From contig JADLAC010000009.1 of NCBI GenBank assembly GCA_020848435.1, positions 89,765-153,764 of the forward strand: a stretch of 64,000 nt of DNA. Direction: 5' to 3'. Below, one piece after another: positions 36,191 to 63,477 of this stretch. The notes under the pieces are model-generated. The model was not told where the DNA came from, did not search any database, and was given only the letters and a program-made list of their open reading frames with translations. Both the position numbers and the translations under genes were made by a program. The stretch's first letter is position 1. Each line of letters starts with the position of its first letter. The DNA comes from Burkholderiales bacterium (lineage in GTDB: Bacteria > Pseudomonadota > Gammaproteobacteria > Burkholderiales > WYBJ01).

Positions 36191-37576
36191 ATGTCCTTCG
36201 CTTCGCTTCTGCCTCGATCCGCCATCCCCGGAATCGTATGGCCGCCGATCCCCGGCGTGATGGCCGCGCGCGTGCTGGCGCTGCTGCAACAACTCGATCG
36301 CAGCCAATGGTGGCCTGCCGCCGAGTTGCGCCGATGGCAGTCGAAGCAGCTCCAAGCGTTGCTCGACCACGCCTTCGGCAGCGTCCCCTACTATCGTGAA
36401 GACCTGCACGACCAGGTGACGGCCGAGCTTCGCGCCGAGAGCATGCTCGAGCGGCTGCAAGCGGTCCCCTTGTTGACGCGCGCCGCCGTGCAGCGTGCCG
36501 GCGAGCGGCTGAACAGCATCCAGGTCCCGCTGCAGCATGGCGCGCTCGCCACGCTCTCCACCGCGGGCTCGACCGGCCGTCCAGTCACGATTAACAAGAC
36601 GCAGCTCACTTCGCTGATTTGGCATGCGCTCATTCTTCGCGAGCACGCCTGGCACGGTCGGGATCTCGCGGCCAAGATGGCAGTGATCCGCTTCGTCGAG
36701 GATCCCGCTCGCGCGCGAGCGCCGGAAGGCTTGCACCAATCCGGTTGGGACACGATCAGCCATGTGCTCTACGAAACCGGACCGTGCGCGCTGCTCGCCA
36801 TCGATACGCCGGTGCGCGAGCAAGTGCAATGGCTCCAGCGCGAGAATCCCGATTACCTGCTGACGTATCCGACCAACCTGGCCGCCTTGCTCGAGTGTCT
36901 AAGCGCGGACCAGGCTCCCCTGCCCCGCCTGAGGGCGGTGCAGACGATCAGCGAAGCGTTCGACCCCGATCTGCGGGCGCGCTGCCGCGAGGTGCTGGGC
37001 ATCGATGTGGTCGACAGCTACAGCTCCCAGGAGGTCGGCCTGATCGCCTCGCAGTGTCCGACTTGCGCTGCGTATCACGTCCATGCGGAAGCGGCCTTGG
37101 TCGAAGTGTTGCGCCCCAATGGCGCAGCTTGCCGGCCGGGCGAGGTTGGTCGCGTGGTGGTTACGGATCTGCACAACTTCGCCACCCCGCTCATCCGCTA
37201 CGAGATCGGCGACTTGGCGGAGGTGGGCGAGGCGTGCCGCTGTGGGCGGGGCCTGCCCGTGCTGACGCGCATCCTCGGCCGCGTGCGCAACATGTTGACC
37301 CTGCCGGATGGGCAGCAGCTTTGGCCACGGCTTCGCAATCAGTTCTTCGCGGAGGTCGCCCAGGCGCCGATCGAGCAGATCCAGATCGTGCAGAAATCAT
37401 TGCAGCAAATCGAGATCCGGCTGGTGTGCGCGCGGCTGACGCCGGAACAAGAGCAACGCGTCGCACGGCTCTTGTGTCAGGCACTGGGTCATCGCTTCGA
37501 CGTTGCGTTCCAATACTGCGAGACGATTCCCCGCAGTCGCGGCGGGAAGTTCGAGGAGTTTCTCTCGGAGCTATGA
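36191..37576 (+). CDS. PaaK/CapK-type adenylate-forming enzyme (paralogue 2 of 3)
   Basis: The start was trimmed to the ATG at 36191 (MSFASLL). Motifs: VPYYREDL, VPLLTRAAV, TAGSTGRP, PLIRYEIGD, GGKFEEF. Its 3' end overlaps the convergent LanB-like gene by 6 nt. Confidence 0.75.
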   Translation: MSFASLLPRSAIPGIVWPPIPGVMAARVLALLQQLDRSQWWPAAELRRWQSKQLQALLDHAFGSVPYYREDLHDQVTAELRAESMLERLQAVPLLTRAAVQRAGERLNSIQVPLQHGALATLSTAGSTGRPVTINKTQLTSLIWHALILREHAWHGRDLAAKMAVIRFVEDPARARAPEGLHQSGWDTISHVLYETGPCALLAIDTPVREQVQWLQRENPDYLLTYPTNLAALLECLSADQAPLPRLRAVQTISEAFDPDLRARCREVLGIDVVDSYSSQEVGLIASQCPTCAAYHVHAEAALVEVLRPNGAACRPGEVGRVVVTDLHNFATPLIRYEIGDLAEVGEACRCGRGLPVLTRILGRVRNMLTLPDGQQLWPRLRNQFFAEVAQAPIEQIQIVQKSLQQIEIRLVCARLTPEQEQRVARLLCQALGHRFDVAFQYCETIPRSRGGKFEEFLSEL

Positions 37577-40114
37577 GCTTGGCTGCTGGAAGCGATCGGC
37601 ATCGCCCGGCCAGAGGCGTTTATCGAGCGCGACCAGCCGCAGCTCGCTGGTGTAGCGCTCGCCGTTCGCATCCGGGAGCCAGAGCTGCTCCGGACTGGGC
37701 AGCATTTCGACCAGGCTCACCCAGCCCTCCTCGGCCGCGGTCGCCGCGCGTACCAGCTTAGCCATCAATTCCACCAGCGGCGGACTGTCGAAGTCGACGT
37801 GGACGGGCTTGTGCTCGCTGCTGGTTCTCACGAACACCCAGCGCGGAAGCGCGTGCGTGGAGCGCAATTCCCAGGCGCCGCGGAAGCGCTCGGCCGGATT
37901 CGCGCCACGCGCAAACGCCAGCTCCCGCGCCGGGAAACGCCAGCTTTCCCTGCTCACCACGAGGTCGTCGATGGCGATGCGCGGCGTATGCGGCCTTGGG
38001 CCGAGCAGCCGGAAGCGACGGGCGCAGAAACCCCTCAACTGCGGGCCGAAGAAGCTGATCGCGGGAAACGAGCGGCTGTGGTCGCGCGTGCGTATCCTCA
38101 GACCTTGCGCATCCTCGTCGACCACGAGCTGGGCTATGGGGATGACCTGCTCGCGCGCTCGCCATGACGGCACATCGTCGAACTCGACGTGTACGCCGTG
38201 GACCAGCGCCGGGTCGTACACGCCGCGCTCGCCCAGCATGGCGTGATTCACCACGGCGCTCAACTCCGCTTCGGGTTGATCGCGCTGCGCCTGCGCAAGG
38301 AATTGCGTTGCCTGCGGGTGCAGCGCGAGAAACGTCGCCTGCAACAGGGTATTGCCCGAGGCGTGCAGCTCTCCCAGGACGAGCGTGAATTGCCCGGCGC
38401 GGATCGCATCGACGCTCTGCGCCGCGATCAAGACATCCGGGGAGTGAAAACGCGCGCCCGGCCAACCGGGGCCGGGAGCATCGAACGCGGCATCCACGGC
38501 GTCCCGGAGCGCTTCGGCGCGCAGCGACACCCGACGGCAATTCTCCGGCTCAGCGCCGAGCAGCAGCGGCGCCCAGCGCTCTTCGAGCTGCTCGACGACA
38601 TCGTCGACGAGCAGCCGCAGCGTTTCCTCGTTGTCTTGTAGCGCACGCCAAAGCGTGGTCAACGCCACCGCGGTATCGCCCGCTCGGGAGCGGCACAGTT
38701 CCCAAGCGCCGCGCACCCAATCCATGTATTGCCCCGCGAGCTGCCAGGTGAACCAACGCGCGCTCGTCAGCACCAGCGACAGCGGGGCGGCCAGACGATC
38801 GATGACGGACTTACCCAGGGTCAGTGCGACGTCGCGGATGCAATCCTCGTACAGTAGGCCGCGCCCGGCGGAAACCGAGCCCGCGGCGCGCCGGGACGCT
38901 TTGCCCGTGATCGAGGTGAAGCGATGCTCCAGGTCCGCCATCGCCGCGTCGAGCGCGCGTGAGTCGCCTGCGCAGCGCGCTACCGACAAGCGCGCCTGTT
39001 CGAGCGAATCCAGCGGCGCGATCAAACGGCCCCGGACGTGCGGGTCGCCTACGCGCTCGAGCAGCTTTCGCAACCAAGCCTCGGGATGCGGGACGATCGG
39101 TATGCTCGGAGCCCAGACGACCAGGCGCGCCGCGGCGAGGGACTCGAGGAAGAATGCGATCTCCGGATACGAGCTGTCATCGGCTCCGAGCAGTGCCGGC
39201 AGCTCGCGCGCCTGCACGTCGCCGCTCAACAGCGAAAGCACGCGCGCCTGGCTCTCGCTGAGCGCGATCGTCTGATCGTCGCCGCGGTATAGCTCGAGCG
39301 CCTCGACCCGGCACGTCGGAGCGAGCCTTGGGCAAAGCCACGCCCGCAGCGCCGGGTCGCGCGCGCACCCTTCCGCGAGCGCACGGATCGCCCAGTGCTC
39401 GAAGTGAAGCATGCGCTCGGCGAGCAGGCGCGGCCCGACCTGCATCCGCAGGTTGGCGGTCGCGGGATCGAGCTGTATCCAAGCCAGGGGACCGAAGAAG
39501 CCGATGGTCTCGTTCTTCGACGCGTAACGCTGGAGATACTCCGCGACGAGCCGAGCGTGTTGGCGCGCAGCAGCGCCGGTAGCGTCGGCTGCGTGGCGCA
39601 GCAGTGGCGCCAGCGCCGTATCCAACAACGCACGGTTCTGCCAGACAAGGGCCTCGCGAAACAGCGGATCAGCGGCGGCGGCGAGCAGCACCGACCTGCT
39701 ACGCTGCGCGCCGCGGTCGTAGATCGAGGTGAATTCTTCCAGAGCGCGGGTGTACTGATCGAACGCCGCCCGCGCGGCGTCCAGCAGCGGCTGTAGCTGC
39801 GGGCGTTCCGCCAGCGCAGGCGCGAGCTGGCCGTGGCGCAGGCGATTGATCGCTTTCTTGAGCCGGCGCTCCTCCCTGCCCTCCAAGCCACGGGAGATCA
39901 CCCCGCACTGCTGCGCGAGCTGCGAGCAGCGCAGCCGGTAAGCGCCCAGCGCTGCATCCAGTCGCGATGCCGCGGCTGCCACGTCCGCGGCGACCACGCG
40001 GGCGAGGTATCCATAGGGGAAACCGGCGCTGCGCAACGCCGCTTCCCGCCACAGGCTCCAGTCCGCGCTTAGGGATAAGCGATGGCCCAAGGGCACTGCA
40101 GGATCGCTCGCCAT
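37571..40114 (-). CDS. Lantibiotic-dehydratase N-terminal (LanB glutamylation domain)-like protein with no elimination (SpaB_C) domain
   Basis: The start was trimmed to MASDPAV at 40114 (GAGGAG RBS, 11 nt after the upstream stop); 847 aa. LanB-like landmarks: WSLWREAALRSAGFPY; PLFREALVWQNRALL; YLQRYASKNETIGFFGPLAW (compare R..R.TPFG.FA); GELHASGNTLL; IAIDDLVVSRESWRF; ALPRWVFVRTSSEHKPVHVDFDSPPLVELM. Confidence 0.7.
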   Translation of the reverse strand: MASDPAVPLGHRLSLSADWSLWREAALRSAGFPYGYLARVVAADVAAAASRLDAALGAYRLRCSQLAQQCGVISRGLEGREERRLKKAINRLRHGQLAPALAERPQLQPLLDAARAAFDQYTRALEEFTSIYDRGAQRSRSVLLAAAADPLFREALVWQNRALLDTALAPLLRHAADATGAAARQHARLVAEYLQRYASKNETIGFFGPLAWIQLDPATANLRMQVGPRLLAERMLHFEHWAIRALAEGCARDPALRAWLCPRLAPTCRVEALELYRGDDQTIALSESQARVLSLLSGDVQARELPALLGADDSSYPEIAFFLESLAAARLVVWAPSIPIVPHPEAWLRKLLERVGDPHVRGRLIAPLDSLEQARLSVARCAGDSRALDAAMADLEHRFTSITGKASRRAAGSVSAGRGLLYEDCIRDVALTLGKSVIDRLAAPLSLVLTSARWFTWQLAGQYMDWVRGAWELCRSRAGDTAVALTTLWRALQDNEETLRLLVDDVVEQLEERWAPLLLGAEPENCRRVSLRAEALRDAVDAAFDAPGPGWPGARFHSPDVLIAAQSVDAIRAGQFTLVLGELHASGNTLLQATFLALHPQATQFLAQAQRDQPEAELSAVVNHAMLGERGVYDPALVHGVHVEFDDVPSWRAREQVIPIAQLVVDEDAQGLRIRTRDHSRSFPAISFFGPQLRGFCARRFRLLGPRPHTPRIAIDDLVVSRESWRFPARELAFARGANPAERFRGAWELRSTHALPRWVFVRTSSEHKPVHVDFDSPPLVELMAKLVRAATAAEEGWVSLVEMLPSPEQLWLPDANGERYTSELRLVALDKRLWPGDADRFQQPSS

Positions 40115-40125
40115 CTCCTCGACGC

Positions 40126-41520
40126 TCACGCCTGGAGCTCGCAGCGGAAATCCTCGAACTTGCCGCCGGCGGCACGCTCGATGGCATCGACCCGTCGCAG
40201 CTCCACGTCGAAGGCATAGCCGAGGTCGCGCTGCATTCCCTCGACCAGTGCGTCGCGCTGTGACGCTCCGATCGGGCTCGAGGTCACGATCAGAACCAGG
40301 ATGTCGGTCAGGCTGCGTTGAATGACCTGGCATTGCTCGACGCGTACCACTTCCGCGTCATGCAAGCAGCGGAACAACGGCCAGCGCGTTTCCCCAGAGG
40401 GCAGGCGCAACATGTTGCGCGCACGCCCCAGCACTCGCTTCAGGACCGCATGAGGACCGCCACGGGGGCAGGGTGCGTCGAGCTGCGCGTAATCACCCAA
40501 TTCGTAACGGATGAGGGGCATGGCGAAGTTGTGCAACACCGTCACTACGACGCGTCCGATCGCGCCCGGCGGACACGGCCGATCGCGCTGGTCGAGGACT
40601 TCCACCAGCACGGATTCGCTGCACACATGCAGGTGCTCATGCGCAGCACATTGCATCGCGATGGGCCCGGTTTCCACGGCGCTGTATTCGTCGATAACGG
40701 CAACGCCGAAGACCTGGCCGCACAGCGCGCGCACCGAGGGATCGAGCACTTCGGCGAAGCTGCGCAGCGCGCGCAATGACGGTATGGCGGTCGCCGTCTC
40801 GCGCAACCGGCGGGCGAGCGCCGCCAGGTTGCTCGGGTAGCTCAACAGATAAGCCGGTCGCTCGCGGGCGAGCCACTCGATCTGCTCACCGACGGTGGCC
40901 TCGATACTCAGTTGAACTGCCGGACCGCACGGATAGCCGGCTGCCCAGAGCGCCTCGCGCGCGCCCTCGGGCGGCGTGGCGTAACCCGGCGGCTGTTTCC
41001 TGATCGCGGCGACCTTGGCGGAAAGATCGATCCCGTGACGCAGATACTGGGCGAGGTAGTGCGCCTTTTGCGGGAGCGCCAAGAGCTCGGGCTGCAGCAC
41101 CTGAACGGGACGTCCGGTCGAACCCGATGAAGCCGCGACGCCCAGGCGGCCATGTTCGCGTGGAATTGCGTCGCTGCGCAGCTCGCGCGCCGCGTTCTGG
41201 AGGCTGCGACGCGTGAGTATCGGCAGGCGTTGAAACGATTCCATCGCCGGCGCCTTCTTCCAGCGGCTCGCGGCCTGGCGATAGTGGCGCCGGTACCAGG
41301 GCACGGTGCGCATCGCATGCTCGACGAGCGCTTCGACCTGTTGCAGTTGCAGCGCGAGCAGCTGCGAGGGCTGCAACCGTTCATCGCGCGCGAATTCCCG
41401 CAGCATGCTCAAGACCAGCGCGTCCGTCGTGCCGGGTATGGCGGGAAACGCGAGTCCCGGAATCGCGCAGGCCGGTACGTTGGTATCGAGGACCGGGGTG
41501 TCCAAGGCAGCGGCCGGCAC
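40126..41520 (-). CDS. PaaK/CapK-type adenylate-forming enzyme (paralogue 3 of 3)
   Basis: 464 aa with a GTG start. Motifs: VPWYRRHY, LPILTRRSL, SSGSTGRP, PLIRYELGD, GGKFEDF. It shares the N-terminal AIPG..(F/W)P.IPG motif with paralogue 2. Confidence 0.75.
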   Translation of the reverse strand: MPAAALDTPVLDTNVPACAIPGLAFPAIPGTTDALVLSMLREFARDERLQPSQLLALQLQQVEALVEHAMRTVPWYRRHYRQAASRWKKAPAMESFQRLPILTRRSLQNAARELRSDAIPREHGRLGVAASSGSTGRPVQVLQPELLALPQKAHYLAQYLRHGIDLSAKVAAIRKQPPGYATPPEGAREALWAAGYPCGPAVQLSIEATVGEQIEWLARERPAYLLSYPSNLAALARRLRETATAIPSLRALRSFAEVLDPSVRALCGQVFGVAVIDEYSAVETGPIAMQCAAHEHLHVCSESVLVEVLDQRDRPCPPGAIGRVVVTVLHNFAMPLIRYELGDYAQLDAPCPRGGPHAVLKRVLGRARNMLRLPSGETRWPLFRCLHDAEVVRVEQCQVIQRSLTDILVLIVTSSPIGASQRDALVEGMQRDLGYAFDVELRRVDAIERAAGGKFEDFRCELQA

Positions 41521-41552
41521 GGGATCGGCAGGGTTGCGTACGAGGTGCGCTA

Positions 41553-41585
41553 GAAAACGATCGGGGGCGCCACGGCGCCCCCGAT
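41553..41585 (-). terminator. Rho-independent terminator after the PEP-CTERM gene
   Basis: A perfect inverted repeat, ATCGGGGGCGCC / GGCGCCCCCGAT (41560-41585), is followed on the minus strand by CGTTTTCT. Confidence 0.5.
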
Positions 41586-41606
41586 GTTACCGCAAGCCGA
41601 TGCGCG

Positions 41607-42368
41607 TCAGCTTTCTTGCTCGTCGCGCCGTGATCGCCGCCGGCCTGCGGCGAGCAGCAGCGCACCTAGACCTCCGGCGAGCAAACCCAGGCTCCCCGGC
41701 TCCGGTACCGCTTGCAGCACTTGGAACGTGGCGGGTATGCCGCCCTGGAGCGGGAACGCCGGGTCACCTGTACGCGGCGGCTGCTCGAACCAGGAGGCCT
41801 GGTAAGGCGCCGGCGCCGGCCCGATCGGAGAATCGAACCCGAAGTTATCCTTGGAGCCGCCTTCGCCTATGCCAAAGAAGCACCCTTCGCCTTCGAAACA
41901 TCTCGTGTAGAAATGCAGGACGTACTCGTGATTCGCGTACACCGGGTTATAGAACGGATCGGTCGGATTCTGCCAAGTTATCTGGCCGTCCCAGCCTGTG
42001 AAGCCGTTGGATACGCCGCGCCGTTCGATCGCCCAGTCCCAGCCCTCCGGCGTAACGATATTCGAGATCCCCGCCGCATTGGAGGTTATGTTCTGGCCGT
42101 CCCCGACGCCGTCGAACGGGAGCTCCCAGTCCCGCAGCAGGCTGATGGGTTGGTTGTAAGAATCCGAGGTATTGCACACGAGGTACCTGTACCGAAAGCC
42201 GCTACCACTACCGGTGACGTCATCCTGGACCGCGGAGGTTCGTTCCTCTGCGGTAGTTCCAGTACAGCCGATGATGGCGGCTTCGCTCGCCCCGCTCACG
42301 AACCCCAGCGCCCCGAACAGCGCAATGGCGGAGACATCGGCCCTGAACCAGCGAAAATCCTTCTTCAT
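41607..42368 (-). CDS. PEP-CTERM sorting-domain secreted protein
   Basis: The start was trimmed to MKKDFRW at 42368 (AGGAG RBS). It has a signal peptide. The C-terminus VPEPGSLGLLAGGLGALLLAAGRRRSRR is the PEP motif plus a TM helix plus an Arg cluster. The gene is visibly less GC-rich than its neighbours. Confidence 0.8.
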   Translation of the reverse strand: MKKDFRWFRADVSAIALFGALGFVSGASEAAIIGCTGTTAEERTSAVQDDVTGSGSGFRYRYLVCNTSDSYNQPISLLRDWELPFDGVGDGQNITSNAAGISNIVTPEGWDWAIERRGVSNGFTGWDGQITWQNPTDPFYNPVYANHEYVLHFYTRCFEGEGCFFGIGEGGSKDNFGFDSPIGPAPAPYQASWFEQPPRTGDPAFPLQGGIPATFQVLQAVPEPGSLGLLAGGLGALLLAAGRRRSRRDEQES

Positions 42369-42696
42369 GAAATACGCTCCTGACGTTGCCGCCCGCCAAT
42401 GCCCGACCGCCACATTGATCCTGGTCAGCGTGAAAACGACCTGCGCTTGCAGCGCGAAGCAATATCCGCGCCTTTTTCAAGGGCGATGGATTTTCAATGT
42501 CTTAGCGGTGATGCCTCGGAGCGGTGTAAGGGATCTCGACAATCGGGGATCGATGCCTCGCGCCTGCTGCCGGAGAAAAACGAATCGTCCGTCGCGCATG
42601 GCAGCGCTGTAATCGATCGATTACGTCGCGTCAAGCGGTTTGAATGCGGCACTTCGGGACGCAACAGCCGCTCGGGCGGTATCTCTTCTTCTTCCG

Positions 42697-42784
42697 TGGT
42701 GCCCGGGGCCGGACTCGAACCGGCACGCCGTGTGAGGGCGAGGGATTTTAAGTCCCTTGTGTCTACCGATTCCACCACCCGGGC
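42697..42784 (-). tRNA. tRNA-Leu (anticodon UAA), encoded CCA end
   Basis: Manual fold of the reverse complement: acceptor GCCCGGG/CCCGGGC, anticodon stem AGGGA/UCCCU with loop CUUAAAA, a long variable arm, T-arm GCCGG-UUCGAGU-CCGGC, then discriminator A plus CCA. Confidence 0.85.
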
Positions 42785-42929: not shown

Positions 42930-43556
42930 ATGAGCGAAGCGCTCGACTATCTGCTCAAGGTCAGACCCGAGGCCATGGGCCATTACTTTCGCTTCATGGC
43001 CGAAGCCGGCCGCCATCTCGATCCGAAGACGCGAGCATTGATCTCGGTGATCACCAAGGTACACGCCCAGACCGAGGCAGGATTCAGGCAATACCTGAGG
43101 CGCGCGCTCAAGGACGGCGTGCGCCCGATGGAAGTGATCGATGCGCTGCTGATGGCGTTTCCCGCGCTCGGGCTGACCCGGATCGTGTGGGCGATCGATG
43201 TGTTGATCCAGATGGATCTGCCCGAGTTTCGGGCCGCCGCACTGACCGGCGTGTCCGACTGGCATCGGGTCGGCGACACGGACGCATTCGATGTCGGCGA
43301 GACGGCGCGAATCGAGCTCGCCGGGCAGCCGCTGTTCGTGCATCGCAGCGCTGAAGAGTTTCGTGTCTACGATGCACGCTGCCCGCACCAGGGCACGCCG
43401 ATCCCGGAACAAGCGTTGAAGGGCACGCGTCTCACCTGCCCCAAGCACGCCTGGAAATTCGACGTTCAAAGCGGCCGCTGTACCCAGGGGGGCGATCGCC
43501 CGCTGCGGCGATTAGAGAGCAAGGTCGTCGCCGGCGAGCTGCTCGTCTACTGCTGA
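42930..43556 (+). CDS. Fusion protein: carboxymuconolactone decarboxylase/AhpD-like domain plus Rieske [2Fe-2S] domain
   Basis: The start was trimmed to MSEALDYLL at 42930. The N-terminal half is CMD-like. The C-terminal half has Rieske ligand motifs CPHQG and CPKHAWKF. Confidence 0.7.
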   Translation: MSEALDYLLKVRPEAMGHYFRFMAEAGRHLDPKTRALISVITKVHAQTEAGFRQYLRRALKDGVRPMEVIDALLMAFPALGLTRIVWAIDVLIQMDLPEFRAAALTGVSDWHRVGDTDAFDVGETARIELAGQPLFVHRSAEEFRVYDARCPHQGTPIPEQALKGTRLTCPKHAWKFDVQSGRCTQGGDRPLRRLESKVVAGELLVYC

Positions 43557-43568
43557 CGCGCGGGCCCC

Positions 43569-43757
43569 TCAGGCGCTCGGTTTCATGAGCAAGCTCATGG
43601 TCTGGAAGGTCACCACGGCCAGCACCAGGATGATGACGAAAAAGACGATCTGACGGTGCTCGAAGCGGGCGCCGCGGGTGCGTTCGAGGTAGTTGAGGAC
43701 CGCATCGGCGATCGCGTACAGACCGACGGCAATGACGGTGAAATAGAGCATCTCCAT
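43569..43757 (-). CDS. Small two-TM membrane protein (62 aa), last gene of the oxidase/cytochrome-b array
   Basis: MEMLYFTVIAVGLYAIADAVLNYLE...IVFFVIILVLAVVTFQTMSLL. It starts 18 nt after the stop of the upstream HCO-like gene. It is the only credible part of the 459-aa track ORF. Confidence 0.45.
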   Translation of the reverse strand: MEMLYFTVIAVGLYAIADAVLNYLERTRGARFEHRQIVFFVIILVLAVVTFQTMSLLMKPSA

Positions 43758-43774: not shown

Positions 43775-45208
43775 CTATGCCGCGTCGGCGGCGGTAAGGC
43801 GCACGCTGCGGTGCCGGCGCATCATGGCGCTCACCACGACAATGAGAAACAGCACGCCGCCGATGACCGCGATCAACCCGCCCGCGCCCATCACGCCCAT
43901 CGCGACGATCTGTTCGGTCGTACGCAGCGCCTGATCCGCGCCCGCGACCTTGCGCTGCACGCCGTAGCCTCCGGACCATACCAGGCCGACGATATGCAGC
44001 AATTGCCCGCCCCCGTATACCCAGGGCTGGACATGCGCGAGCCGCGCATTGACGGATCGAAACCCCAGCCGCGGCAAGAGCGCGTACGTCAGGCCCATGA
44101 GCGCCAGTGTCACCCCGACGATGCAACCGTGGTAATGGGCCGGAATCTTGACGTTGCTGCCTTGGATCATGAAGCCGATGATGCCGCCGGCGCCGAACAA
44201 GATGAGCGAGGCCACCAGCGCCGCCCGCATGGGGCGCGTATCCCGGCCCGGTGCGGGGGCGCGCAGCAGCGCCGCGAACACGGCAAGCGTGAAAGGAACG
44301 ATCGCGAGCCCTCCGCCGAAGCGCATCAGCCAGGTGAGCAGCCGATGGTGCTCCACCGAGGCGATGTCGTAGGCCAGGTAGATCACCGGGGTCAGGAACA
44401 CCGAGACCAGGGCGATCGCGAACAGCAGGATCGCTACTCGCGGCGTGAGCGGGACGCGTGCGCCCGCCTCCTCGGCGAGCCACAGCCACGCGACCAGCAT
44501 GAGCAGCGTGTAGGTGAATTGCATGACGTGACCGCCACCCCAGAAGAGCAGCTCGTAGAGCGCGCGCCCGTCCAATCCCCGCGGCAGCACGAGCCACGAC
44601 CAGGCGAAAGCGATCAGCGCGACCGCGAGCGAAACGGCCGCGCTGTTGAGCCCGAAGCGTAGCGCCCCGGCGCCATCGGGTCGGATACCGACGGCCGGGG
44701 CCGCCGTCATGCTGCGCAGGACCAGGCACAAGGTACCGATGCCGAACACGATCAGCCCGCTCAGGAACACCGGCTCGTCGAGCACGGGTATGTAGTTGGC
44801 CATGATCGGATTGCCGCTGCCCGCGAAGGGTGCGGCGGCCATGATCGCCGCACCGCACGCGGACAACGCCAAGGCGCACCAGCCAGCGCGACGCCAGCGC
44901 GGCCCGCTGTTGAGACTCCACAGCACGCCGCCGAAAGCCACGAACCACACCAGCACCGACAAGTCGACGTGCACCACCAGCGCGACGTGGAAGAAGTCCA
45001 CCAGGGGGAAGAAATCCTTCACGTACGGCGCGCGCGAAAGCACGAGGAGCACGGAGAACAGGCCCGATACGAGCAGCGAGACGACGGCGAGCGAGAGCCA
45101 GCCGACCGCGAGCGGACGCCGCGCCGTGTCCGACACGTCGAGCCGGTAGGCATAGGCGCGCGCGCCGCGGCTCGCAGCGCGCCGCGACAGGGCCGCGATC
45201 ATATTCAT
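43775..45208 (-). CDS. Divergent haem-copper oxidase superfamily catalytic subunit (subunit-I-like, 477 aa), no adjacent subunit II
   Basis: The start was trimmed to MNMIAAL at 45208 (ATGA overlap with the upstream gene). Roughly 12 hydrophobic segments. Candidate canonical His set: FFHVAL (helix II), FWGGGHVMQF (helix VI, no Tyr), VEHHRL (helix VII HH), AHYHG (helix X HxH). Confidence 0.6.
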   Translation of the reverse strand: MNMIAALSRRAASRGARAYAYRLDVSDTARRPLAVGWLSLAVVSLLVSGLFSVLLVLSRAPYVKDFFPLVDFFHVALVVHVDLSVLVWFVAFGGVLWSLNSGPRWRRAGWCALALSACGAAIMAAAPFAGSGNPIMANYIPVLDEPVFLSGLIVFGIGTLCLVLRSMTAAPAVGIRPDGAGALRFGLNSAAVSLAVALIAFAWSWLVLPRGLDGRALYELLFWGGGHVMQFTYTLLMLVAWLWLAEEAGARVPLTPRVAILLFAIALVSVFLTPVIYLAYDIASVEHHRLLTWLMRFGGGLAIVPFTLAVFAALLRAPAPGRDTRPMRAALVASLILFGAGGIIGFMIQGSNVKIPAHYHGCIVGVTLALMGLTYALLPRLGFRSVNARLAHVQPWVYGGGQLLHIVGLVWSGGYGVQRKVAGADQALRTTEQIVAMGVMGAGGLIAVIGGVLFLIVVVSAMMRRHRSVRLTAADAA

Positions 45209-45705
45209 CGGAACAGCACTCCTTCGACCTCGCGGTCGAAATCTATGGTCAATACCTGCCCGGCGCGCAAGCTTACGGTGCGCGCCACGACCTGCGGGCT
45301 CGTGTTCCGGCGCGCATCGTCGGCGACGCTCGCCTCGATCCGATGCGTTCCGGCGGCGAGGGGCAAGCGCCGGTAGAGGGTGGCCGCACCGTCGCGCGCC
45401 AAGCCGCGCGGCGGCAGGGTTTCGTCCACCATCAATTCGCCGTCCACGATCAGCCGCACGCGCACATCGGCACGTTCCCGCGGACAGGATTCGGCATGAC
45501 GCATGTTGGCCGGCAGGCGCGCCAGCTCCTCCGCCGACAGGCGGCGGCACGGCTTGAGGCGCGCACCGTCGAGCGTCATGCTGAGGCGAAGCAACGCGGT
45601 ATCCGGAGGCAGTTGCTGGTAGCTCGGCGCGACCGAGCAATACGCGAGCGCGATCCCGCACACGCCGTAACAGAGCAAGCGCCCGAGCATGCGCCGATCA
45701 AGCAT
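45205..45705 (-). CDS. Conserved hypothetical single-TM protein, paralogue of 47334-47837
   Basis: N-terminal TM helix. Motifs shared with the paralogue: LP.D.AL.R.S, EELA.LP.NMR, CPRER, DGAAT.YRR, IDFD. An alternative Met lies at 45690. Confidence 0.5.
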   Translation of the reverse strand: MLDRRMLGRLLCYGVCGIALAYCSVAPSYQQLPPDTALLRLSMTLDGARLKPCRRLSAEELARLPANMRHAESCPRERADVRVRLIVDGELMVDETLPPRGLARDGAATLYRRLPLAAGTHRIEASVADDARRNTSPQVVARTVSLRAGQVLTIDFDREVEGVLFR

Positions 45706-47326
45706 TGCCCAGTCTCCGCAGCCGCGGCCGATCGCCGCGCGCCTCGACGGCGCTCGTCTTGGCGCGCAGACTCGCCACCGCCTGCGCCAGATCGCGCTCC
45801 TCGCCCGCGCCCGCGAAGCTCAAAGCCCAGCGCGAGGGATCGACGCTCGTTCGCAGGTGCGGCTCCCTCTCGCCCGACAAGCGCCGCTCGATCCATTGCG
45901 GCCCGAGGCGGAATTCGCACTCTCCCGGATGGCAGGCGTTGACCACGACCCCGGCTGCACCGGCGCGCAATGCATATTCGACGAACGCCGGCGGCAGCAT
46001 GGCGATGCATAGCAGCGGCAGCGCGAGCACGCCCTCGGCGCGTACGCTGTCGAGCGCTGCCGCACGCTCGCAGCCGAACACGACGATCGCCGGACCGCGC
46101 TCGCCTGCGAGCGCACGCTCCAGCTCCCGGCGCAGATCGTCGACGGTTCGCCGCGGCATGTCGATGCCGCTCAGCAGCGCGTCCGTGCTGCGAAAAGGTG
46201 TGGATGAGGGACAAGCGCCCGCGCAGATACCGCAGCCGGCGCACGCGTCCGCGATCACCACGGGAAAACGTTGGCCGGCTCTCGCACCCGGGCGCGGCTT
46301 CATCGCGATCGCCGCATATGGACAGTCATCGGCGCAGCGCGCGCAGCCGTTGCAGTTGTCGAGATCGACCCGCGCGTGCTCGCGCGGCGCCGGTCTAGCA
46401 GCCAATGCCGGCATCGCACACAACAGCAAGGTCGCGCCGGCGGCGAAACTCCACGCGATTCCAGGCGATGTTTCATACTGGAGCGGATGAATGAAGAGGT
46501 AGAACCAGTCGAGCGCCAAGCCGGTTTGCAGCAGCGTGGGATCGGCCGGCGCATGACTGGCTGCCGGCGCCGCCACGGCGAGCGCGAGCAAGGTGAGCAG
46601 CACGCCCCACGCCAGCGAGCGCGGCGGCAGCGTGTGCACGTGACTGATGCGCTGGATGTGTATCCACATGCCGGCCAGCAGCAGCAAGGGAATGCCGATG
46701 TGCAGGAAGATGAGCAGGGAGAAGAAGCGGTCGTCGATCGGCTGGATGAAATTGCGTACGATCGCATCGCCGCCCAAGGGCAGCCAGTCGAGCCACTCCG
46801 CGGTCGCGGTGATCGAGAACAGAGCGAGCTGGTCCCAGACCAGCCAGTAGCCGCCGATCCCCGAGGCATACGCGAGCCAGATGAGCGGTACCCCGCTCAG
46901 CCAGGAGAACCAGCGAAAGCTCGCGAAGTGCCCGCGCAAGAGCTCGCGCCCGATGTGCAGCAGCATGATCGCCGCGAAAGCATCGGAGGCATAGCGGTGC
47001 AGGCTGCGCATGATTCCGCCGAGATACCATTGCTCGCTGCTCAGCTGCTCGACCGAGGCATAGGCGCCGGCTGCGCTGGTATCGAAGAACGCGTAGAGAT
47101 AGATCCCGGTCGCGGTCACGATCCAGAACAGATAGAACCCGAGGGCGCCGAGCTGGTGCCAGGGGTTGTGCTCGGGCGCGAACGCACGCTCGAGGCCGCG
47201 ACCGATCGCGGCCGCGATACGAACCCACGGTCGCGCTGCCGCGTTGCTCGCCACGCCCGTTGTCCTGAACCCCGACATGGCGCCAATGCTGACACGCGCC
47301 GCCGAGATCGCATTGACGCGGGTCAA
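45698..47326 (-). CDS. Fusion protein: dihaem cytochrome b (bc1/b6 N-terminal type) + 2x[4Fe-4S] ferredoxin + MvhD/FlpD-like domain
   Basis: Four His sit in TM context (SLHRYASD, MLLHIGRE, FLHIGIP, WIHIQR). Two Cys clusters: CNGCARCADDCP and CAGCGICAGACP. The C-terminus VVFGCERAA...LPLLCIAMLPPAFVEYALRAGAAGVVVNACHPGECEF is MvhD-like. The start is TTG at 47326 (AGGAG upstream) or ATG at 47278. Confidence 0.7.
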   Translation of the reverse strand: MTRVNAISAARVSIGAMSGFRTTGVASNAAARPWVRIAAAIGRGLERAFAPEHNPWHQLGALGFYLFWIVTATGIYLYAFFDTSAAGAYASVEQLSSEQWYLGGIMRSLHRYASDAFAAIMLLHIGRELLRGHFASFRWFSWLSGVPLIWLAYASGIGGYWLVWDQLALFSITATAEWLDWLPLGGDAIVRNFIQPIDDRFFSLLIFLHIGIPLLLLAGMWIHIQRISHVHTLPPRSLAWGVLLTLLALAVAAPAASHAPADPTLLQTGLALDWFYLFIHPLQYETSPGIAWSFAAGATLLLCAMPALAARPAPREHARVDLDNCNGCARCADDCPYAAIAMKPRPGARAGQRFPVVIADACAGCGICAGACPSSTPFRSTDALLSGIDMPRRTVDDLRRELERALAGERGPAIVVFGCERAAALDSVRAEGVLALPLLCIAMLPPAFVEYALRAGAAGVVVNACHPGECEFRLGPQWIERRLSGEREPHLRTSVDPSRWALSFAGAGEERDLAQAVASLRAKTSAVEARGDRPRLRRLGNA

Positions 47327-47333
47327 TCCGCCG

Positions 47334-47837
47334 TCAGCTCCTGAAGCGGAAGCCGCCGCGGGCGTTGTCGAAGTCGATCAGCACGCTGCCCCCCGGGGGC
47401 AGGTCGAGGGTGGTCGTGGCGCGATGGTTGAAATCGCCGTGCGGGCGATCGCGCATGCGCACCGCGATCTCGTGGCGCCCCGTGGGCAGCTCGATGCGCC
47501 GGTAGACCGTGGCGGCGCCGTCGTGGTGCAATCCCGAGGGCGGCACGTCGAGGCTCAGCAAGAGCCTGCCGTCGAGCTCCACTTCGACCTTCAACGGCGA
47601 GCGCTCGCGCGGGCAATCGAGCTGCGAGCGCATATTGGGTGGGAGCTTGGCGAGCTCCTCGGGCGTGCGCTGGTGGCATTCGCGCAGGCGCTCGCCGGCA
47701 TGCGAGAACGATACGCGCATGAGCGCGCGGTCCTGCGGCAGGTGCGCAAATCGCGGTGCCGACGAGAAGTAGCCGAGGATCACCATCAAGGGCACGTAGA
47801 GCGCCAATTGCGCCAGAAAGCGCAGCACCCCGATCAT
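47334..47837 (-). CDS. Conserved hypothetical single-TM protein, paralogue of 45205-45705
   Basis: The start was trimmed to MIGVLRF at 47837 (ATGA overlap with the upstream stop). The shared motifs are the same as for 45205-45705. Confidence 0.5.
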   Translation of the reverse strand: MIGVLRFLAQLALYVPLMVILGYFSSAPRFAHLPQDRALMRVSFSHAGERLRECHQRTPEELAKLPPNMRSQLDCPRERSPLKVEVELDGRLLLSLDVPPSGLHHDGAATVYRRIELPTGRHEIAVRMRDRPHGDFNHRATTTLDLPPGGSVLIDFDNARGGFRFRS

Positions 47838-49774
47838 CGCCCGCCCCCGGGCTTCATGATTTCTGCCGCTCCCCCCGGCTTGTGCGCGGGCAGCAGGAAG
47901 GTATCGGAGAAGCAATCCTCTTGCGCGAGCCCGCGGGCAAGAAACGCGGGATGCGCCGCGGCCACCATGTCGACCGATCCGCAGGCATAGATCTGATGGC
48001 CGGCAAGATCCGGAAAGTCGGCCAGGATCGCCTCATGGACCAACCCGATGCGGCCGGTCCAATGGTCCTCCGGCGCCGGGTCCGACATCACCGGAATGAA
48101 CTTGAAATTTGCGTGCTCGCGCTCCCACTGGCGCGGCAGCTCGCCAAGGTACAGATCCTGCGGGCGGCGCACGCCCCAGTACAGCAGCATGTTGCGTTTG
48201 AGGCCGATATGCAGAGCGTGCTCGACCATGCTTTTCACGGGCGCGAAGCCAGTCGATCCGGCGACGAAGATGATCGGCTTGTCGCTGTCTTCGCGCAGGA
48301 AGAACGAGCCCAACGGCGCTTCGAATCGGATGGTATCGCCCACCTGCATATGGTCGAACACCCAGGGCGTGAACTTGCCGCCCGGCACCAGGCGAATCTG
48401 CAATTCGATCTCGCCTTGCACGTGCGGAGCGGTCGCGAAGGAAAAGCTGCGATGCTCGCCGTTCGGCAGCAGCACGTTGATGTACTGCCCGGCGTAGTAG
48501 TCGAGCTGCTCGCCGGGCCCGAGGGCGAGAAAGACCTGCATCACATCGGGGGCGAGGCGGTTCATGCGCGTGACGCGGGCGTTGTAGGTCCGTATCGGCC
48601 GCCCGCCGAGCGGCTCGGTCGGCTCGTACTCGACCTCGATGTCGCTCAACGCCGTCGCGCAGCACAGCAGCAGCTTGCCGGCGGCGCGCTCGGCCTCGCT
48701 GAGCGCGTCCTTCTGGTAGTTGCCCGGATCGATTTCGCCGTAAGTGAGGGTCGCTTTGCATTTGCCGCAGCCGCCGTTGCGGCACTCGAAGGGGAACGCG
48801 ATACCCTCGCGCAAGCCCGCGTCGAGGATGCTTTCGCCTTCGCGCACGCTGATGATGTGGTTGTCCGGGCGCACCAGCAGATGGAAGCCCTCCTTGGAGA
48901 CGCGCCGGCGCTTCGGCGGCAACCACGGCGCCAACAGGAACAGCGCGGTCGCACCGCCGACCAGCGCCCACACCTCACCCGGGCTCCAGCGATACAGCAG
49001 GGCATACACGGGCAGGTAGAACCAGTCGAAATCGATCACCGTCACGGCGGATGCGAGATCCGCCGGCGCCTGGCTCAGCGCGGGCTTGAGCAGCGACAGC
49101 ACCACCAGCGCGGCGCTCAACGTGGCGGCAATCGGCCAAGGCGGCGAGGTGCGCGCCTGCGGCACGCGCTGGGTATGCACCATCAGCAGCGCCAGCGCGG
49201 CGAGCGGGATGCCGATATGGATGAACGAGAGCAGCGAGAACAGCCGGTCGTTCACGTTCTCCGGAAAAATGAAGTTGCGCACCAGCGTACCGCCGAAGAC
49301 CGGGATCCAGTCGAACCATTCGGCCGTGGCGATCACCACGAACTGCGCCAGGCGGTCCCACGGCAGCATGTAACCGTTGATCCCCGCGGAGTAGATGAGC
49401 CAGAGCAGGACGACCCCGCTCACCCAGGAGAACCAACGGAAGGCGCGGTAACGGTCGAACACGAAATGCCGCGCCAGGTGCAAGAGCATGGTCAATACCA
49501 TGCCGTCGGAGGCATAGCGGTGCAGGCTGCGCAAGATGCCGCCGAAATACCATTGCCCGTGGGTGAGCTGCTCGACCGAGGCGTAGGCTTCTTCCACTCC
49601 GGTATCGAAGAAGATGTAAAGGTAGAGCCCGCTTCCCAGCACGATCCAGAACAGGAAGTAGCTGATCGGACCGAGGTAATAGAGCGGATTGAGGCGGTCG
49701 CCGAAAGCGAGGTTGAAGAAGCTCTCCACCCGCAGGAAAGCCCAGCGTCCGGCACGATGCACGAGTTTCAACAC
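47834..49774 (-). CDS. Fusion protein: dihaem cytochrome b (bc1/b6 N-terminal type) + plant-type [2Fe-2S] ferredoxin + FNR-like FAD/NAD(P)H reductase
   Basis: The cytochrome-b half is paralogous to 45698-47326 (SLHRYASD, MLLHLARH, FIHIGIP, MVHTQR). The ferredoxin motif is FECRNGGCGKCKA...LLCCA. The FNR module reads RSFSFA (FAD) ...IIFVAGSTGFAP (NAD(P)H) ...YACGS. GTG start. Confidence 0.75.
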   Translation of the reverse strand: MLKLVHRAGRWAFLRVESFFNLAFGDRLNPLYYLGPISYFLFWIVLGSGLYLYIFFDTGVEEAYASVEQLTHGQWYFGGILRSLHRYASDGMVLTMLLHLARHFVFDRYRAFRWFSWVSGVVLLWLIYSAGINGYMLPWDRLAQFVVIATAEWFDWIPVFGGTLVRNFIFPENVNDRLFSLLSFIHIGIPLAALALLMVHTQRVPQARTSPPWPIAATLSAALVVLSLLKPALSQAPADLASAVTVIDFDWFYLPVYALLYRWSPGEVWALVGGATALFLLAPWLPPKRRRVSKEGFHLLVRPDNHIISVREGESILDAGLREGIAFPFECRNGGCGKCKATLTYGEIDPGNYQKDALSEAERAAGKLLLCCATALSDIEVEYEPTEPLGGRPIRTYNARVTRMNRLAPDVMQVFLALGPGEQLDYYAGQYINVLLPNGEHRSFSFATAPHVQGEIELQIRLVPGGKFTPWVFDHMQVGDTIRFEAPLGSFFLREDSDKPIIFVAGSTGFAPVKSMVEHALHIGLKRNMLLYWGVRRPQDLYLGELPRQWEREHANFKFIPVMSDPAPEDHWTGRIGLVHEAILADFPDLAGHQIYACGSVDMVAAAHPAFLARGLAQEDCFSDTFLLPAHKPGGAAEIMKPGGGR

Positions 49775-49849: not shown

Positions 49850-50692
49850 TCAGCCGCGGGAGCGGCGGCGCTGGCGCCGCCATTCGTAGATGAGACTGCC
49901 CGTTCCGGCAAGCACGATGCTCGCGCCGACCAGCAGCTCGATCACGACGGCGTAGTTCAAGCGATACCTGCCCGCGCTCGGATCATACACCGTGCAGAGC
50001 AGCCGGACACGTTCGAGCCAGTCGGCGAGCGCCGGAGACGCGCTGCGCTGCCCGGTGACGAGCTCCTTCAGCGGACCGACCAGCAAGGGCAGATCGAACG
50101 AATCACCATAGAGCTGACGATAGATGCGCCCCTCCGGATCCACGACCGTGAGCTGGAGCACGTGGTCGAAGCCCTTTGCCGTCTGCGCGTAGCTGAAGCC
50201 GAAATCACGCAACAGCGCATCGACGCGCCCGGCGTCCGGGCTCAGAAACGACCATCCCGGCAGATCCGCCCCGTGGCGCCGGGCGAAATCCTTCATTGCG
50301 ACCGGGTTATCGTGGGGAAGATTGAAGCCGATCGTGATGCTGTGGAAGCTGTCGGCGCCAAGCGTCTGCTGTGCCGAACGCAATGCCTTGACGAGGAATT
50401 GCGTAGTCGCGGGGCAGACTTCGTAGCAGCCGGTATAGACGAAGCTCACCACCAGCGGCTTGCCGCGGTATTGGCTCAGTCGAACGCGTTTGCCTTGGGC
50501 TTCGGTGAATTCGTAATCGGCCGGCGCGGTTCCGACGACACCCTGGCTCAGCGCCAGGGCTGCCTTCTGGTCGAGCGCTGCGCTGGATTGAGCGCGGGTG
50601 GTTTCGGCCAGCAGGACCAGGGTCACGACGAGCCCCACCGCGATGCCGATGCGGGTGGCGAGGCCGGCGCGCTTGCCACCGCGGAGCGTCAA
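49850..50692 (-). CDS. SCO1/SenC-family copper chaperone (thioredoxin fold) with an extra C-terminal TM segment
   Basis: CxxxC motif in FVYTGCYEVCP. N-terminal TM anchor. The TTG start overlaps the cyoE stop (TTGA). Confidence 0.8.
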   Translation of the reverse strand: MTLRGGKRAGLATRIGIAVGLVVTLVLLAETTRAQSSAALDQKAALALSQGVVGTAPADYEFTEAQGKRVRLSQYRGKPLVVSFVYTGCYEVCPATTQFLVKALRSAQQTLGADSFHSITIGFNLPHDNPVAMKDFARRHGADLPGWSFLSPDAGRVDALLRDFGFSYAQTAKGFDHVLQLTVVDPEGRIYRQLYGDSFDLPLLVGPLKELVTGQRSASPALADWLERVRLLCTVYDPSAGRYRLNYAVVIELLVGASIVLAGTGSLIYEWRRQRRRSRG

Positions 50693-53374: not shown

Positions 53375-53914
53375 CTACTTTACGTAGAGCTTGCTCGACA
53401 TCGTGTGATGATTGATGCCGCAGTACTCGTTACAGATGATCGAATAGGTCCCGGCGCGAGTGGGTTGCACGGTAAGGACGTGGTCGTAGCCCGGATGCAC
53501 CTGGATGTTGATGTTCTCGGGCTGCAGCGAGAATCCGTGCAGCCAATCCATCGACATGAGATGGATGCGGTAGCTCTTGCCGGCCTCGAGCTCGAGGATC
53601 GGCCACCACGACCACAGGCGCGCTACCAGGTACACGTCGCTGCCGGCGGGCGGCGCCACCACGGGAATCTTCTGGTCGGTCTCGGTGCGCACGGTGAACT
53701 TGTCCACCATATCCTGCGCCTTCTTCATGTAGACCTCGGGCGTGGTGCGGTACGCCTCGTTGGCCAGGTTCTGTTTTCCGAACACATGCCAGTACGGCAT
53801 CATGAAGAACATGATCAGGCACCAGATCAGCGCGATGACGACCCAGGTGCCCTCCACGCGATCCAGCGGTTGCTTCCACCAGACGCGATCCTCGGGCGGT
53901 AGTATGGCGCTCAT
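53375..53914 (-). CDS. Haem-copper oxidase subunit II with a CuA cupredoxin domain
   Basis: One N-terminal TM helix. The CuA motif is WLHGFS...CNEYCGINHHTM (H...C-x-E-x-C-G-x-x-H-x-x-M). Confidence 0.75.
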   Translation of the reverse strand: MSAILPPEDRVWWKQPLDRVEGTWVVIALIWCLIMFFMMPYWHVFGKQNLANEAYRTTPEVYMKKAQDMVDKFTVRTETDQKIPVVAPPAGSDVYLVARLWSWWPILELEAGKSYRIHLMSMDWLHGFSLQPENINIQVHPGYDHVLTVQPTRAGTYSIICNEYCGINHHTMSSKLYVK

Positions 53915-53947: not shown

Positions 53948-54127
53948 TTACTTGGCGACCGGGATGTTGACGATTTCCATCACGCCCCAGATCACATAAA
54001 GCACCGTGGGCAGGGCGACCCCGAGAAACAGCAACAGGAAGGGATTGTCGAGAAGCTGCTGCATCACAGGCACCGGCTCCTCGGGCGGCAGGTCGTTCAT
54101 CGGGTCTACACGGGTCTCAGTCGTCAT
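53948..54127 (-). CDS. Small membrane protein (59 aa), first gene of the oxidase array (not in the ORF track, below 60 aa)
   Basis: Manual translation: MTTETRVDPMNDLPPEEPVPVMQQLLDNPFLLLFLGVALPTVLYVIWGVMEIVNIPVAK. GGAGGGAG sits immediately upstream. It ends 33 nt before the subunit II start. Confidence 0.4.
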   Translation of the reverse strand: MTTETRVDPMNDLPPEEPVPVMQQLLDNPFLLLFLGVALPTVLYVIWGVMEIVNIPVAK

Positions 54128-57711: not shown

Positions 57712-57776
57712 TCCACCTCCGATCGGAATCGGCTCCGAGCTCGCGCGTATTTGAACCCACGACGCGCGTACGGAAT

Positions 57777-57790
57777 TTGACGAAGGTCAA
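57777..57790. promoter_or_regulatory. FNR/DNR/NnrR-type palindromic box TTGAC-GAAG-GTCAA upstream of nirS copy 1
   Basis: Direct reading. The box centre lies about 81 nt upstream of the nirS ATG at 57865. Confidence 0.6.
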
Positions 57791-57864
57791 TGGGATACGG
57801 CATGCGCTGCAGCATCCTAAGCGCCGATGAAAGTTTCGTTGATAGCGTCACAGAGGAGATGGCC

Positions 57865-59487: not shown

Positions 59488-59497
59488 CGGCACATGC

Positions 59498-59526
59498 GCG
59501 GCGCCTGCGGGCGCCGCTCTTTTTTG
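59498..59526 (+). terminator. Rho-independent terminator after nirS copy 1
   Basis: The 8-bp stem GCGGCGCC/GGCGCCGC with loop TGCG is followed by TCTTTTTTG. Confidence 0.6.
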
Positions 59527-59548
59527 CACCATCACCAGAAGCACGATC

Positions 59549-60124: not shown

Positions 60125-60165
60125 CCCCACCTCACCGGATACAAGACACGCGGAGACGACGAGCG

Positions 60166-61155: not shown

Positions 61156-63477
<2,322 letters not shown>

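Follow-up and report, generated by a model that had tools for sequence, protein, structure and literature searches.

The six histidine ligands of haem-copper oxidases (HCOs) are treated as nearly untouchable. In the account of Murali et al. (2024; PMC11214002), no nitric oxide reductase (NOR) or oxidase family of the superfamily has fewer than two of the three metal-site histidines, and gNOR is the first and only HCO family in which an active-site histidine is replaced. Another family, eNOR, is diagnosed by a glutamine at the position of the active-site tyrosine (PMC8756737). Retention of the serine corresponding to S309 of ba3 oxidase distinguishes eNOR and bNOR from sNOR, and the haem A synthase CtaA is frequent in eNOR operons because eNOR uses haem As (PMC11214002). 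Here we analyzed a window of 64,000 nucleotides from a Burkholderiales bacterium (GenBank assembly GCA_020848435.1, contig JADLAC010000009.1, positions 89,765 to 153,764), in which a predicted eNOR operon contains a second HCO-like gene. The 477-amino acid protein encoded at 43775-45208 on the minus strand is named HCO2 in the following, and the upstream subunit I encoded at 51632-53356 on the same strand HCO1. HCO2 is a widespread variant of a known superfamily that has been noticed once before and is uncharacterised. Its lineage is large and strongly conserved; it has given up the proton channel and two metal-site histidines but retains both haem sites.

Murali et al. (2024; PMC11214002) do not describe HCO2 among their HCO families, and when we searched the literature for HCO homologues without CuB ligands, nothing specific emerged; an HCO2-like gene was mentioned only in a preprint on Ferrigenium straubiae (bioRxiv 10.64898/2026.01.22.701106). 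There, the gene (IMG 2878407321) is called an "eNOR scaffold protein of unknown function" and is listed as hypothetical with KEGG K02274, cytochrome c oxidase subunit I. The protein was detected in the proteome during denitrifying Fe(II) oxidation.

The minus-strand open reading frame with its end at 43775 comprises 628 amino acids when read from an upstream GTG. The real HCO2 gene is the 477-amino acid version, with the ATG at 45208 and the stop at 43775. A deposited protein from a Burkholderiales metagenome-assembled genome has exactly this sequence (100% identity), and the ATG of HCO2 overlaps the stop codon (TGA) of the upstream gene for a 166-amino acid protein as ATGA. The deposited protein bears the name "cbb3-type cytochrome c oxidase subunit I". 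None of the NCBIfam models matched HCO2, the CcoN equivalog included, and genes for the cytochrome c subunits (ccoO, ccoP) were not found in the operon. Both CcoN and HCO2 match the Pfam family PF00115, and by Foldseek CcoN (3MK7) is structurally more remote from HCO2 than the B and A families are. The database label "cbb3-type" is a generic domain label and misleading in this case.

HCO2 is a genuine homologue of HCO subunit I, far above chance. The Pfam model COX1 (PF00115) matched with E=1.5e-18 and 67.4 bits (cut-off 34.8) over profile positions 6-429 of 436, and an hhalign comparison of the HCO2 family with 67 HCO1 homologues plus ba3 gave a probability of 100% and E=8e-48. An AlphaFold2 (AF2) model calculated with 68 diverse homologues as input had a pLDDT of 91.7, a pTM of 0.92 and 12 transmembrane helices. 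When this model was submitted to Foldseek, only HCO subunit I chains were returned, with subunit I of Thermus ba3 at the top (template modelling score 0.71, E 8e-10, 20% identity) and aa3 oxidases of actinobacteria and proteobacteria next; the scores for ba3 and aa3 ranged from 0.71 to 0.75. No HCO turned up when PDB sequences were searched with HCO2 alone or with a profile of 22 sequences, so that the fold had to rest on Pfam, hhalign and AF2/Foldseek. An earlier reading of the locus from its sequence only (the sequence-only reading) had placed the protein in this superfamily, which is borne out by these results.

To assess the cofactor sites, the numbering of ba3 was transferred to the HCO2 family by means of the deep hhalign alignment. 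Conservation was counted in 123 full-length representatives of 50%-identity clusters, which are 30-50% identical to the query. The positions correspond as follows:

ba3 H72, low-spin haem ligand in helix II: H80 of HCO2, conserved in 122 of 123
ba3 H386, low-spin haem ligand in helix X: H360, 120 of 123
ba3 H384, high-spin haem ligand in helix X: H358, 121 of 123
ba3 R449/R450, propionate anchors: R419/K420, 118 and 119 of 123
ba3 W229, near CuB: W223, 123 of 123
ba3 H233, CuB ligand in helix VI: H227, 123 of 123
ba3 H282/H283, CuB pair in helix VII: I276/Y277, with Ile, Leu or Ala at the first position and Tyr (67), Phe (18) or His (7 of 123) at the second
ba3 Y237, the cross-linked tyrosine: F231, with Phe in 94 and Tyr in 12 of 123
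ba3 S309, T312, T315 and Y248 of the K-channel: positions 303, 306, 309 and 242, with Pro/Ala, Leu/Ile, Leu/Ala and Leu, respectively

As judged from this alignment, HCO2 retains both haem sites and only one of the three CuB/FeB ligands (H227). Because the three haem-ligating histidines and the Arg/Lys anchors are kept, HCO2 most likely carries both haems, one low-spin and one high-spin, near the periplasmic face. A conserved histidine pair was sought across the helix-VII region of the family and was found nowhere, and both the glutamate of cNOR- and qNOR-type sites and the glutamine of eNOR are absent family-wide. The K-channel positions are hydrophobic throughout the family alignment, in which no conserved proton pathway was recognisable.

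The sequence-only reading had credited HCO2 with a complete histidine set distributed over four motifs (FFHVAL, FWGGGHVMQF, VEHHRL and AHYHG). All four motifs occur in the protein, but two of the histidine assignments fail in the profile alignment. H74 of FFHVAL, proposed as the helix-II ligand, is a histidine in 42 of 123 representatives and aligns to a tyrosine of ba3 (phenylalanine in HCO1), the true ligand being H80. VEHHRL had been read as the site of the HH pair; VEHH lies past helix VII, in the loop or at the next helix start, and aligns to T293-W294-K295 of ba3 at the periplasmic start of helix VIII, and its histidines are not conserved (H287 in 36 and H288 in 8 of 123), the actual helix-VII pair being I276/Y277. 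Since HCO2 is still a homologue with the HCO fold, it does not follow from the failed assignments that it is not an HCO. The absence of a helix-VI tyrosine, also pointed out earlier, was confirmed, as F231 stands at the position of ba3 Y237. Among 22 close homologues H287 is invariant, while H288 (H, R or Y) and E286 (E, Q or P) vary. A shallow hhalign comparison of these 22 sequences with a single HCO1 sequence placed E286-H287 opposite the HH pair by way of two gaps. This alignment was rejected because the deep profiles, both in the MAC and in the un-realigned Viterbi alignment, put the pair gapless at I276/Y277, matching the helix boundaries of the AF2 model.

Approximately 45 positions after the initiator methionine are at least 90% conserved over the 123 representatives. 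Invariant residues specific to the family are E219, M295, N138-Y139, Q402 and H405, and on the distal side H227, W223 and Q230 are invariant as well. In ba3, R225, T302, D372, N366 and H376 presumably surround the haem a3 propionates. At the first four of these positions HCO2 has invariant E219, M295, N352 and I348, and H376 is deleted, which suggests that the periplasmic-side pocket is remodelled relative to ba3.

These invariant residues bear on the question of whether HCO2 could be catalytic by means of a novel site. Such a site might consist of the high-spin haem with H227 and Q230, perhaps together with Y277, E286/H287, M295 or a different metal, and HCO2 would then be a reductase or a sensor of NO, O2 or some other small molecule, with a cytochrome b module of the operon replacing subunit II as electron donor. 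The invariance of H227, W223 and Q230, the family-specific E219, M295, N138/Y139 and H405, the invariant H287 of the close homologues, the tyrosine at the Y237 position in 12 of 123 representatives and the location of the operon next to nirS are consistent with this idea. We nevertheless consider it unlikely, as two of the three CuB/FeB histidines, the cNOR/qNOR glutamate and the eNOR glutamine are missing family-wide, a conserved proton pathway is absent, every family in Murali et al. (2024; PMC11214002) retains at least two of the three histidines, and HCO2 accompanies a complete eNOR (HCO1 in 53 of 54 loci, see below). In view of the incomplete histidine set, with one of three CuB/FeB ligands, and the lost K-channel, HCO2 is unlikely to be the catalytic subunit it had been proposed to be.

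All genes from 54127 to 43569 lie on the minus strand and form one operon that ends with HCO2 and a gene for a 62-amino acid protein. The operon and the two haem A synthase genes divergent to it comprise the following features:

53948-54127, minus strand: 59-amino acid transmembrane protein at the operon start, kept in related loci
53375-53914, minus strand: CuA subunit II, a cupredoxin with the motif CNEYCGINHHTM
51632-53356, minus strand: HCO1, eNOR-type subunit I, 574 amino acids
50689-51543, minus strand: haem O synthase (CtaB/CyoE)
49850-50692, minus strand: SCO1/SenC copper chaperone
47834-49774, minus strand: fusion of di-haem cytochrome b with a [2Fe-2S] ferredoxin and a FAD/NAD(P)H reductase domain (BenC/MmoC-like), 646 amino acids
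47334-47837, minus strand: 168-amino acid paralogue of the 166-amino acid protein (193-amino acid reading frame from an upstream TTG)
45698-47326, minus strand: fusion of di-haem cytochrome b with a cytoplasmic iron-sulfur (FeS) domain (2x[4Fe-4S]) and MvhD/FlpD, 542 amino acids
45205-45705, minus strand: 166-amino acid protein with an N-terminal transmembrane helix and an Ig-like beta-sandwich
43775-45208, minus strand: HCO2, apparently a degenerate paralogue of eNOR subunit I, 477 amino acids, 12 transmembrane helices (Pfam, AF2, Foldseek, hhalign and family alignment)
43569-43757, minus strand: 62-amino acid protein with a single transmembrane helix, directly downstream of HCO2
54326-55357, plus strand: canonical haem A synthase (COX15/CtaA; Pfam E=3e-115), divergent from the operon
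55362-56327, plus strand: second, divergent COX15/CtaA-like protein (E=4e-23)

HCO1 was aligned with ba3 at E ~1e-50; it is B-family-like and has all six histidines. Q235 stands at the position of ba3 Y237 and is a glutamine in 67 of 67 homologues, and the K-channel residues S308, Y246, S259 and T314 are retained, including the serine equivalent to S309. Together with the habit of eNOR operons to include ctaA, the glutamine at the tyrosine position and the retained serine indicate that this is an eNOR operon, and HCO1 shows all of the eNOR features tested (the glutamine, three histidines, a B-type K-channel and a CuA subunit II). An assignment of HCO1 to sNOR was rejected on account of the same glutamine and of the serine, which sNOR lacks. 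HCO2 and HCO1 have invariant residues in common that are not found in ba3 (Q230/Q234, W241/W245, Q394/Q423, N352/N373 and W88/W77, respectively), and HCO2 is therefore probably a paralogue derived from eNOR subunit I.

The immediate neighbours of HCO2 were as described before, namely the cytochrome-b/FeS/MvhD fusion, a small paralogue and the 62-amino acid transmembrane protein, and it is also correct that no cupredoxin, NorC-like or quinol-extension gene stands beside HCO2. The designation as an orphan does not hold, since the CuA subunit II and the second HCO are located 6-8 kb upstream in the same operon, both here and in nearly all relatives.

A denitrification block (56839-63477) adjoins the eNOR operon and contains the following genes:

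56839-57711, minus strand: tetrapyrrole methylase (NirE/CobA-like, haem-d1-type)
57790-59487 and 61513-63477, plus strand: two cd1-type nitrite reductase paralogues with cytochrome c domains
59494-61155, between the cd1 paralogues: protein with an ethylbenzene-dehydrogenase-like (EB_dh) haem domain

To determine how widespread the family is, homologues were searched in two ways. A word-based search gave 6,691 matches, and an exhaustive search reached 1,722 of the 50%-identity clusters at E<1e-3 and 782 at E<1e-30. Homologues were present in at least 591 species-level genomes. The carriers are mostly Beta- and Gammaproteobacteria and include the cultured Noviherbaspirillum sp. ST 5-3, Ramlibacter cellulosilyticus USB13, Comamonas faecalis JCM 17561, Piscinibacter caeni MQ-18 and Pelomicrobium sp. 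G1. A tblastn search of a plasmid collection found no homologue. The cluster names of ten distant representatives were uninformative. Synteny was counted at species level in the 80 best genome loci, and at least 8 kb of upstream sequence was required for the counts of HCO1 and CuA subunit II. HCO1 was present in 53 of 54 and the CuA subunit II in 50 of 54 such loci, and a cytochrome b module in 68 of 69 loci. HCO2 thus is a fixed late gene of the eNOR operon in this clade. The 50 of 54 loci also run counter to the view that HCO2 homologues have no canonical subunit II nearby; this subunit belongs to the upstream eNOR-type HCO.

The loss of the catalytic residues and of the proton channel would also be expected if HCO2 were a decaying duplicate of eNOR subunit I without a function of its own. 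This is very improbable, given the strong purifying selection indicated by the ~45 highly conserved positions despite only 30-50% identity, the 782 clusters and at least 591 species-level genomes, the conserved synteny, and the detection of the apparent Ferrigenium counterpart as a protein.

The two cytochrome b proteins of the operon are 46% identical over ~330 membrane residues and differ in their cytoplasmic redox domains. In 122 of 122 homologues of these modules, the four haem-ligand histidines and a D-W motif (LDWFY) that replaces PEWY are conserved; in the 45698-47326 protein, the motif is D273-W274. An invariant D-W at the PEWY position of the Qo site hints at a quinone-reactive site. 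The 166- and 168-amino acid proteins are 40% identical, the likely start of the latter being M27 at 47837, where the gene overlaps the stop codon of the upstream cytochrome b-Fer2-FNR gene as ATGA. Each cytochrome b gene is thus followed by a translationally coupled small Ig-like gene, with overlaps of ATGA or 8 nucleotides, and in loci L001 and L003 cytochrome b is fused to the Ig-like small protein. From the paralogy of the cytochromes b and of their coupled small partners we conclude that the region 45205-49774 on the minus strand is a tandem duplication of a unit of one cytochrome b fusion protein and one Ig-like protein, in which the cytoplasmic domain was exchanged. The family of the 166-amino acid protein has two invariant cysteines (C53 and C74). 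The protein was considered as a cryptic cupredoxin or subunit II; this was rejected, as hhalign against the CuA subunit of the operon gave a probability of 0.08%, and Foldseek returned only generic Ig-like, CARDB and CBM matches with E>1e-3 and no cupredoxin. The 62-amino acid protein adjoins HCO2 in many related loci. A paralogous relationship between the 62- and 59-amino acid transmembrane proteins was likewise dismissed, as they show no similarity.

HCO2 is coupled to the cytochrome b modules physically, by one natural cytochrome b::HCO2 fusion (P0121), and genetically, by the ATGA coupling via the 166-amino acid gene. It had been suggested that the neighbouring genes could substitute for the usual electron-donor subunit. 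In view of the fusion and of the 68 of 69 loci, cytochrome b is indeed a plausible partner; the catalytic role of HCO2 implied by this suggestion is the part that is unlikely. A possible, if somewhat doubtful, explanation of the coupling is that HCO2, the cytochrome b modules, their Ig-like partners and the 62-amino acid protein form a membrane redox complex in which the haems of HCO2 are only a wire. Electrons would flow from quinol or from cytoplasmic NAD(P)H/FeS to eNOR, or in the reverse direction, as in the quinol:NAD+ reverse-electron-transport complex proposed for Ferrigenium. The invariant haem-ligand histidines and the PEWY-like D-W motif of the 122 homologues, the cytoplasmic Fer2-FAD-NAD and 2x[4Fe-4S]-MvhD domains, the fusion P0121 and the fusions of cytochrome b to Ig-like small proteins, the near-constant presence of a cytochrome b module, and the conservation of the HCO2 haem sites and propionate anchors despite the lost catalytic site are all in line with such a relay, and a supercomplex has been proposed (bioRxiv 10.64898/2026.01.22.701106). 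On the other hand, eNOR already has a CuA entry for periplasmic donors, the Rhodothermus marinus enzyme reduced NO in vitro with N,N,N',N'-tetramethyl-p-phenylenediamine (TMPD)/ascorbate as electron donor (PMC11214002), and distant HCO2 clades have CtaA or ResB/CcsA instead of cytochrome b nearby.

These distant clades contain divergent CtaA-HCO2 pairs (L085, L089, L090, L100, L102, L095, L096, L112, L121 and L152) with no other respiratory genes nearby, and in L095, L096, L112, L121 and L152 it is the divergent type of CtaA that is paired with HCO2. An HCO2::CtaB fusion (P0234) is located in an operon with genes for a subunit II-like protein, an HCO, the fusion itself and SenC. In L092 (NCBI GCA_054019295.1, 336-5016), HCO2 is part of a System II cytochrome c maturation operon in the order ResB, CcsA, HCO2, thioredoxin and tetratricopeptide repeat (TPR) protein. 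C-terminal TPR domains are fused to HCO2 in P0133, P0174, P0203 and P0255, and in P0174 and P0203 the CcmH/CycH-type TPR profile was matched as well. The single cytochrome b::HCO2 fusion, P0121, also belongs to the distant relatives. The recurring theme in these contexts is the modification or delivery of haem on the periplasmic side. As the distant clades have no cytochrome b nearby, the link to cytochrome b is specific to the proteobacterial eNOR operons.

Because HCO2 pairs with CtaA, is fused to CtaB or TPR domains and co-occurs with ResB/CcsA in distant clades, we favour a role in haem handling. Our preferred reading, to which we assign a probability of about 0.4, is that HCO2 is a non-catalytic two-haem accessory paralogue that serves eNOR in the handling of haem O/A(s) or in maturation, and whose haems may exchange electrons with cytochrome b. 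HCO2 itself would reduce neither NO nor O2; it would serve the maturation of eNOR, most likely by handling haem O/A(s) from CtaB and CtaA. In this lineage the periplasmic side of HCO2 would be connected to the di-haem cytochrome b modules. From the cytoplasmic NAD(P)H/FeS domains of these modules, electrons could cross the membrane and reach haem centres on the periplasmic side.

Several points weigh against an accessory role. The stable-looking bis-His and His haem sites and the invariant H227 and Q230 fit a permanent redox protein or an enzyme equally well, and electron transfer accounts for the association with cytochrome b more readily than assembly does. What connects HCO2 with CtaA, CtaB and CcsBA is the proximity of the genes, seen in loci that are limited in number and were not sampled at random. 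Close to the high-spin haem, H287/H288, E286, Y277, M295 or E219 may build another metal site. The Ferrigenium scaffold gene is an apparent counterpart of HCO2 on the basis of its annotation and position rather than of an alignment, and the function of HCO2 itself is predicted from sequence.

A bolder interpretation is that HCO2 and the NAD(P)H/FeS-linked cytochrome b modules together make up a previously unknown trans-membrane machine for electron delivery and haem handling that supplies periplasmic-side haem enzymes, and that CtaA, in particular, might have in it the redox partner or product acceptor that is missing in bacteria. Mitochondrial Cox15 requires ferredoxin and ferredoxin reductase, which is a parallel for such a partner of CtaA. 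We regard this as speculative and improbable; if true, it would explain the maturation of the haem a(s)-dependent eNOR at very low O2. In the same reading, HCO2 is also the first widespread HCO lineage without a binuclear centre.

Beyond the 3' end of the operon, the window contains a tRNA-Leu(TAA) gene (42697-42784, minus strand) and, convergent with the operon, a gene for a fusion of a carboxymuconolactone-decarboxylase (AhpD-like) domain with a Rieske [2Fe-2S] domain (42933-43556, plus strand). The region 37571-42413 on the minus strand encodes a protein with a lantibiotic-dehydratase N-domain (920 amino acids), then a 464-amino acid protein with a weak AMP-binding-domain match below the Pfam cut-off, then a PEP-CTERM-anchored protein (268 amino acids). 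These genes may form a locus for peptide modification that has no connection with the eNOR operon.

HCO2 appears to be a natural case of an HCO scaffold that is reused without a binuclear centre. It is a concrete candidate for questions concerning eNOR, namely how haem a(s) is synthesised and inserted during denitrification near anoxia and where the electrons come from. In metagenomes, the labels "cbb3-type" or "cytochrome c oxidase subunit I" on such proteins inflate the counts of terminal oxidases and NORs.

When HCO2 is compared with the NORs that have an FeB site of three histidines and a glutamate and either NorC or a quinol extension (cNOR, qNOR and nNOR), it lacks the histidine pair, NorC and the extension, and its fold is nearest to the B and A families. 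In ba3 oxidase of Thermus thermophilus (PDB 3S8F, 1EHK), H72, H233, H384, H386, W229 and R449/R450 have counterparts in HCO2, whereas H282/H283, Y237 and S309/T312/T315/Y248 have none; moreover, E219 replaces R225, M295 replaces T302, N352 replaces D372, and H376 is unaligned. Like HCO2, gNOR has a replacement of a "universally conserved" active-site histidine (Murali et al., 2024). In gNOR a single histidine is changed to aspartate, the cupredoxin-fold subunit II is kept and the enzyme is proposed to be catalytic, whereas HCO2 lacks two histidines and has no conserved acidic replacement. The eNOR subunit I of Rhodothermus marinus (PMC11214002), to whose family HCO1 belongs, resembles HCO2 in its B-family-derived 12-helix fold, both haem sites and the position of the arginine pair; with HCO1, HCO2 also has in common the lineage-specific residues and the operon, which includes CtaB, SenC and CtaA. 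HCO2 differs from eNOR subunit I by I276/Y277 in place of the histidine pair, phenylalanine in place of glutamine and a hydrophobic K-channel, is ~100 amino acids shorter and has no cupredoxin partner of its own. For the scaffold gene of Ferrigenium, the preprint gives a name and describes no residue-level analysis, metal-site loss or family distribution. In that operon, the scaffold gene follows those for eNOR subunits II and I, haem O synthase, Sco1, a cytochrome b-FeS-FAD-NAD protein and a hypothetical protein, an order that matches the HCO2 operon.

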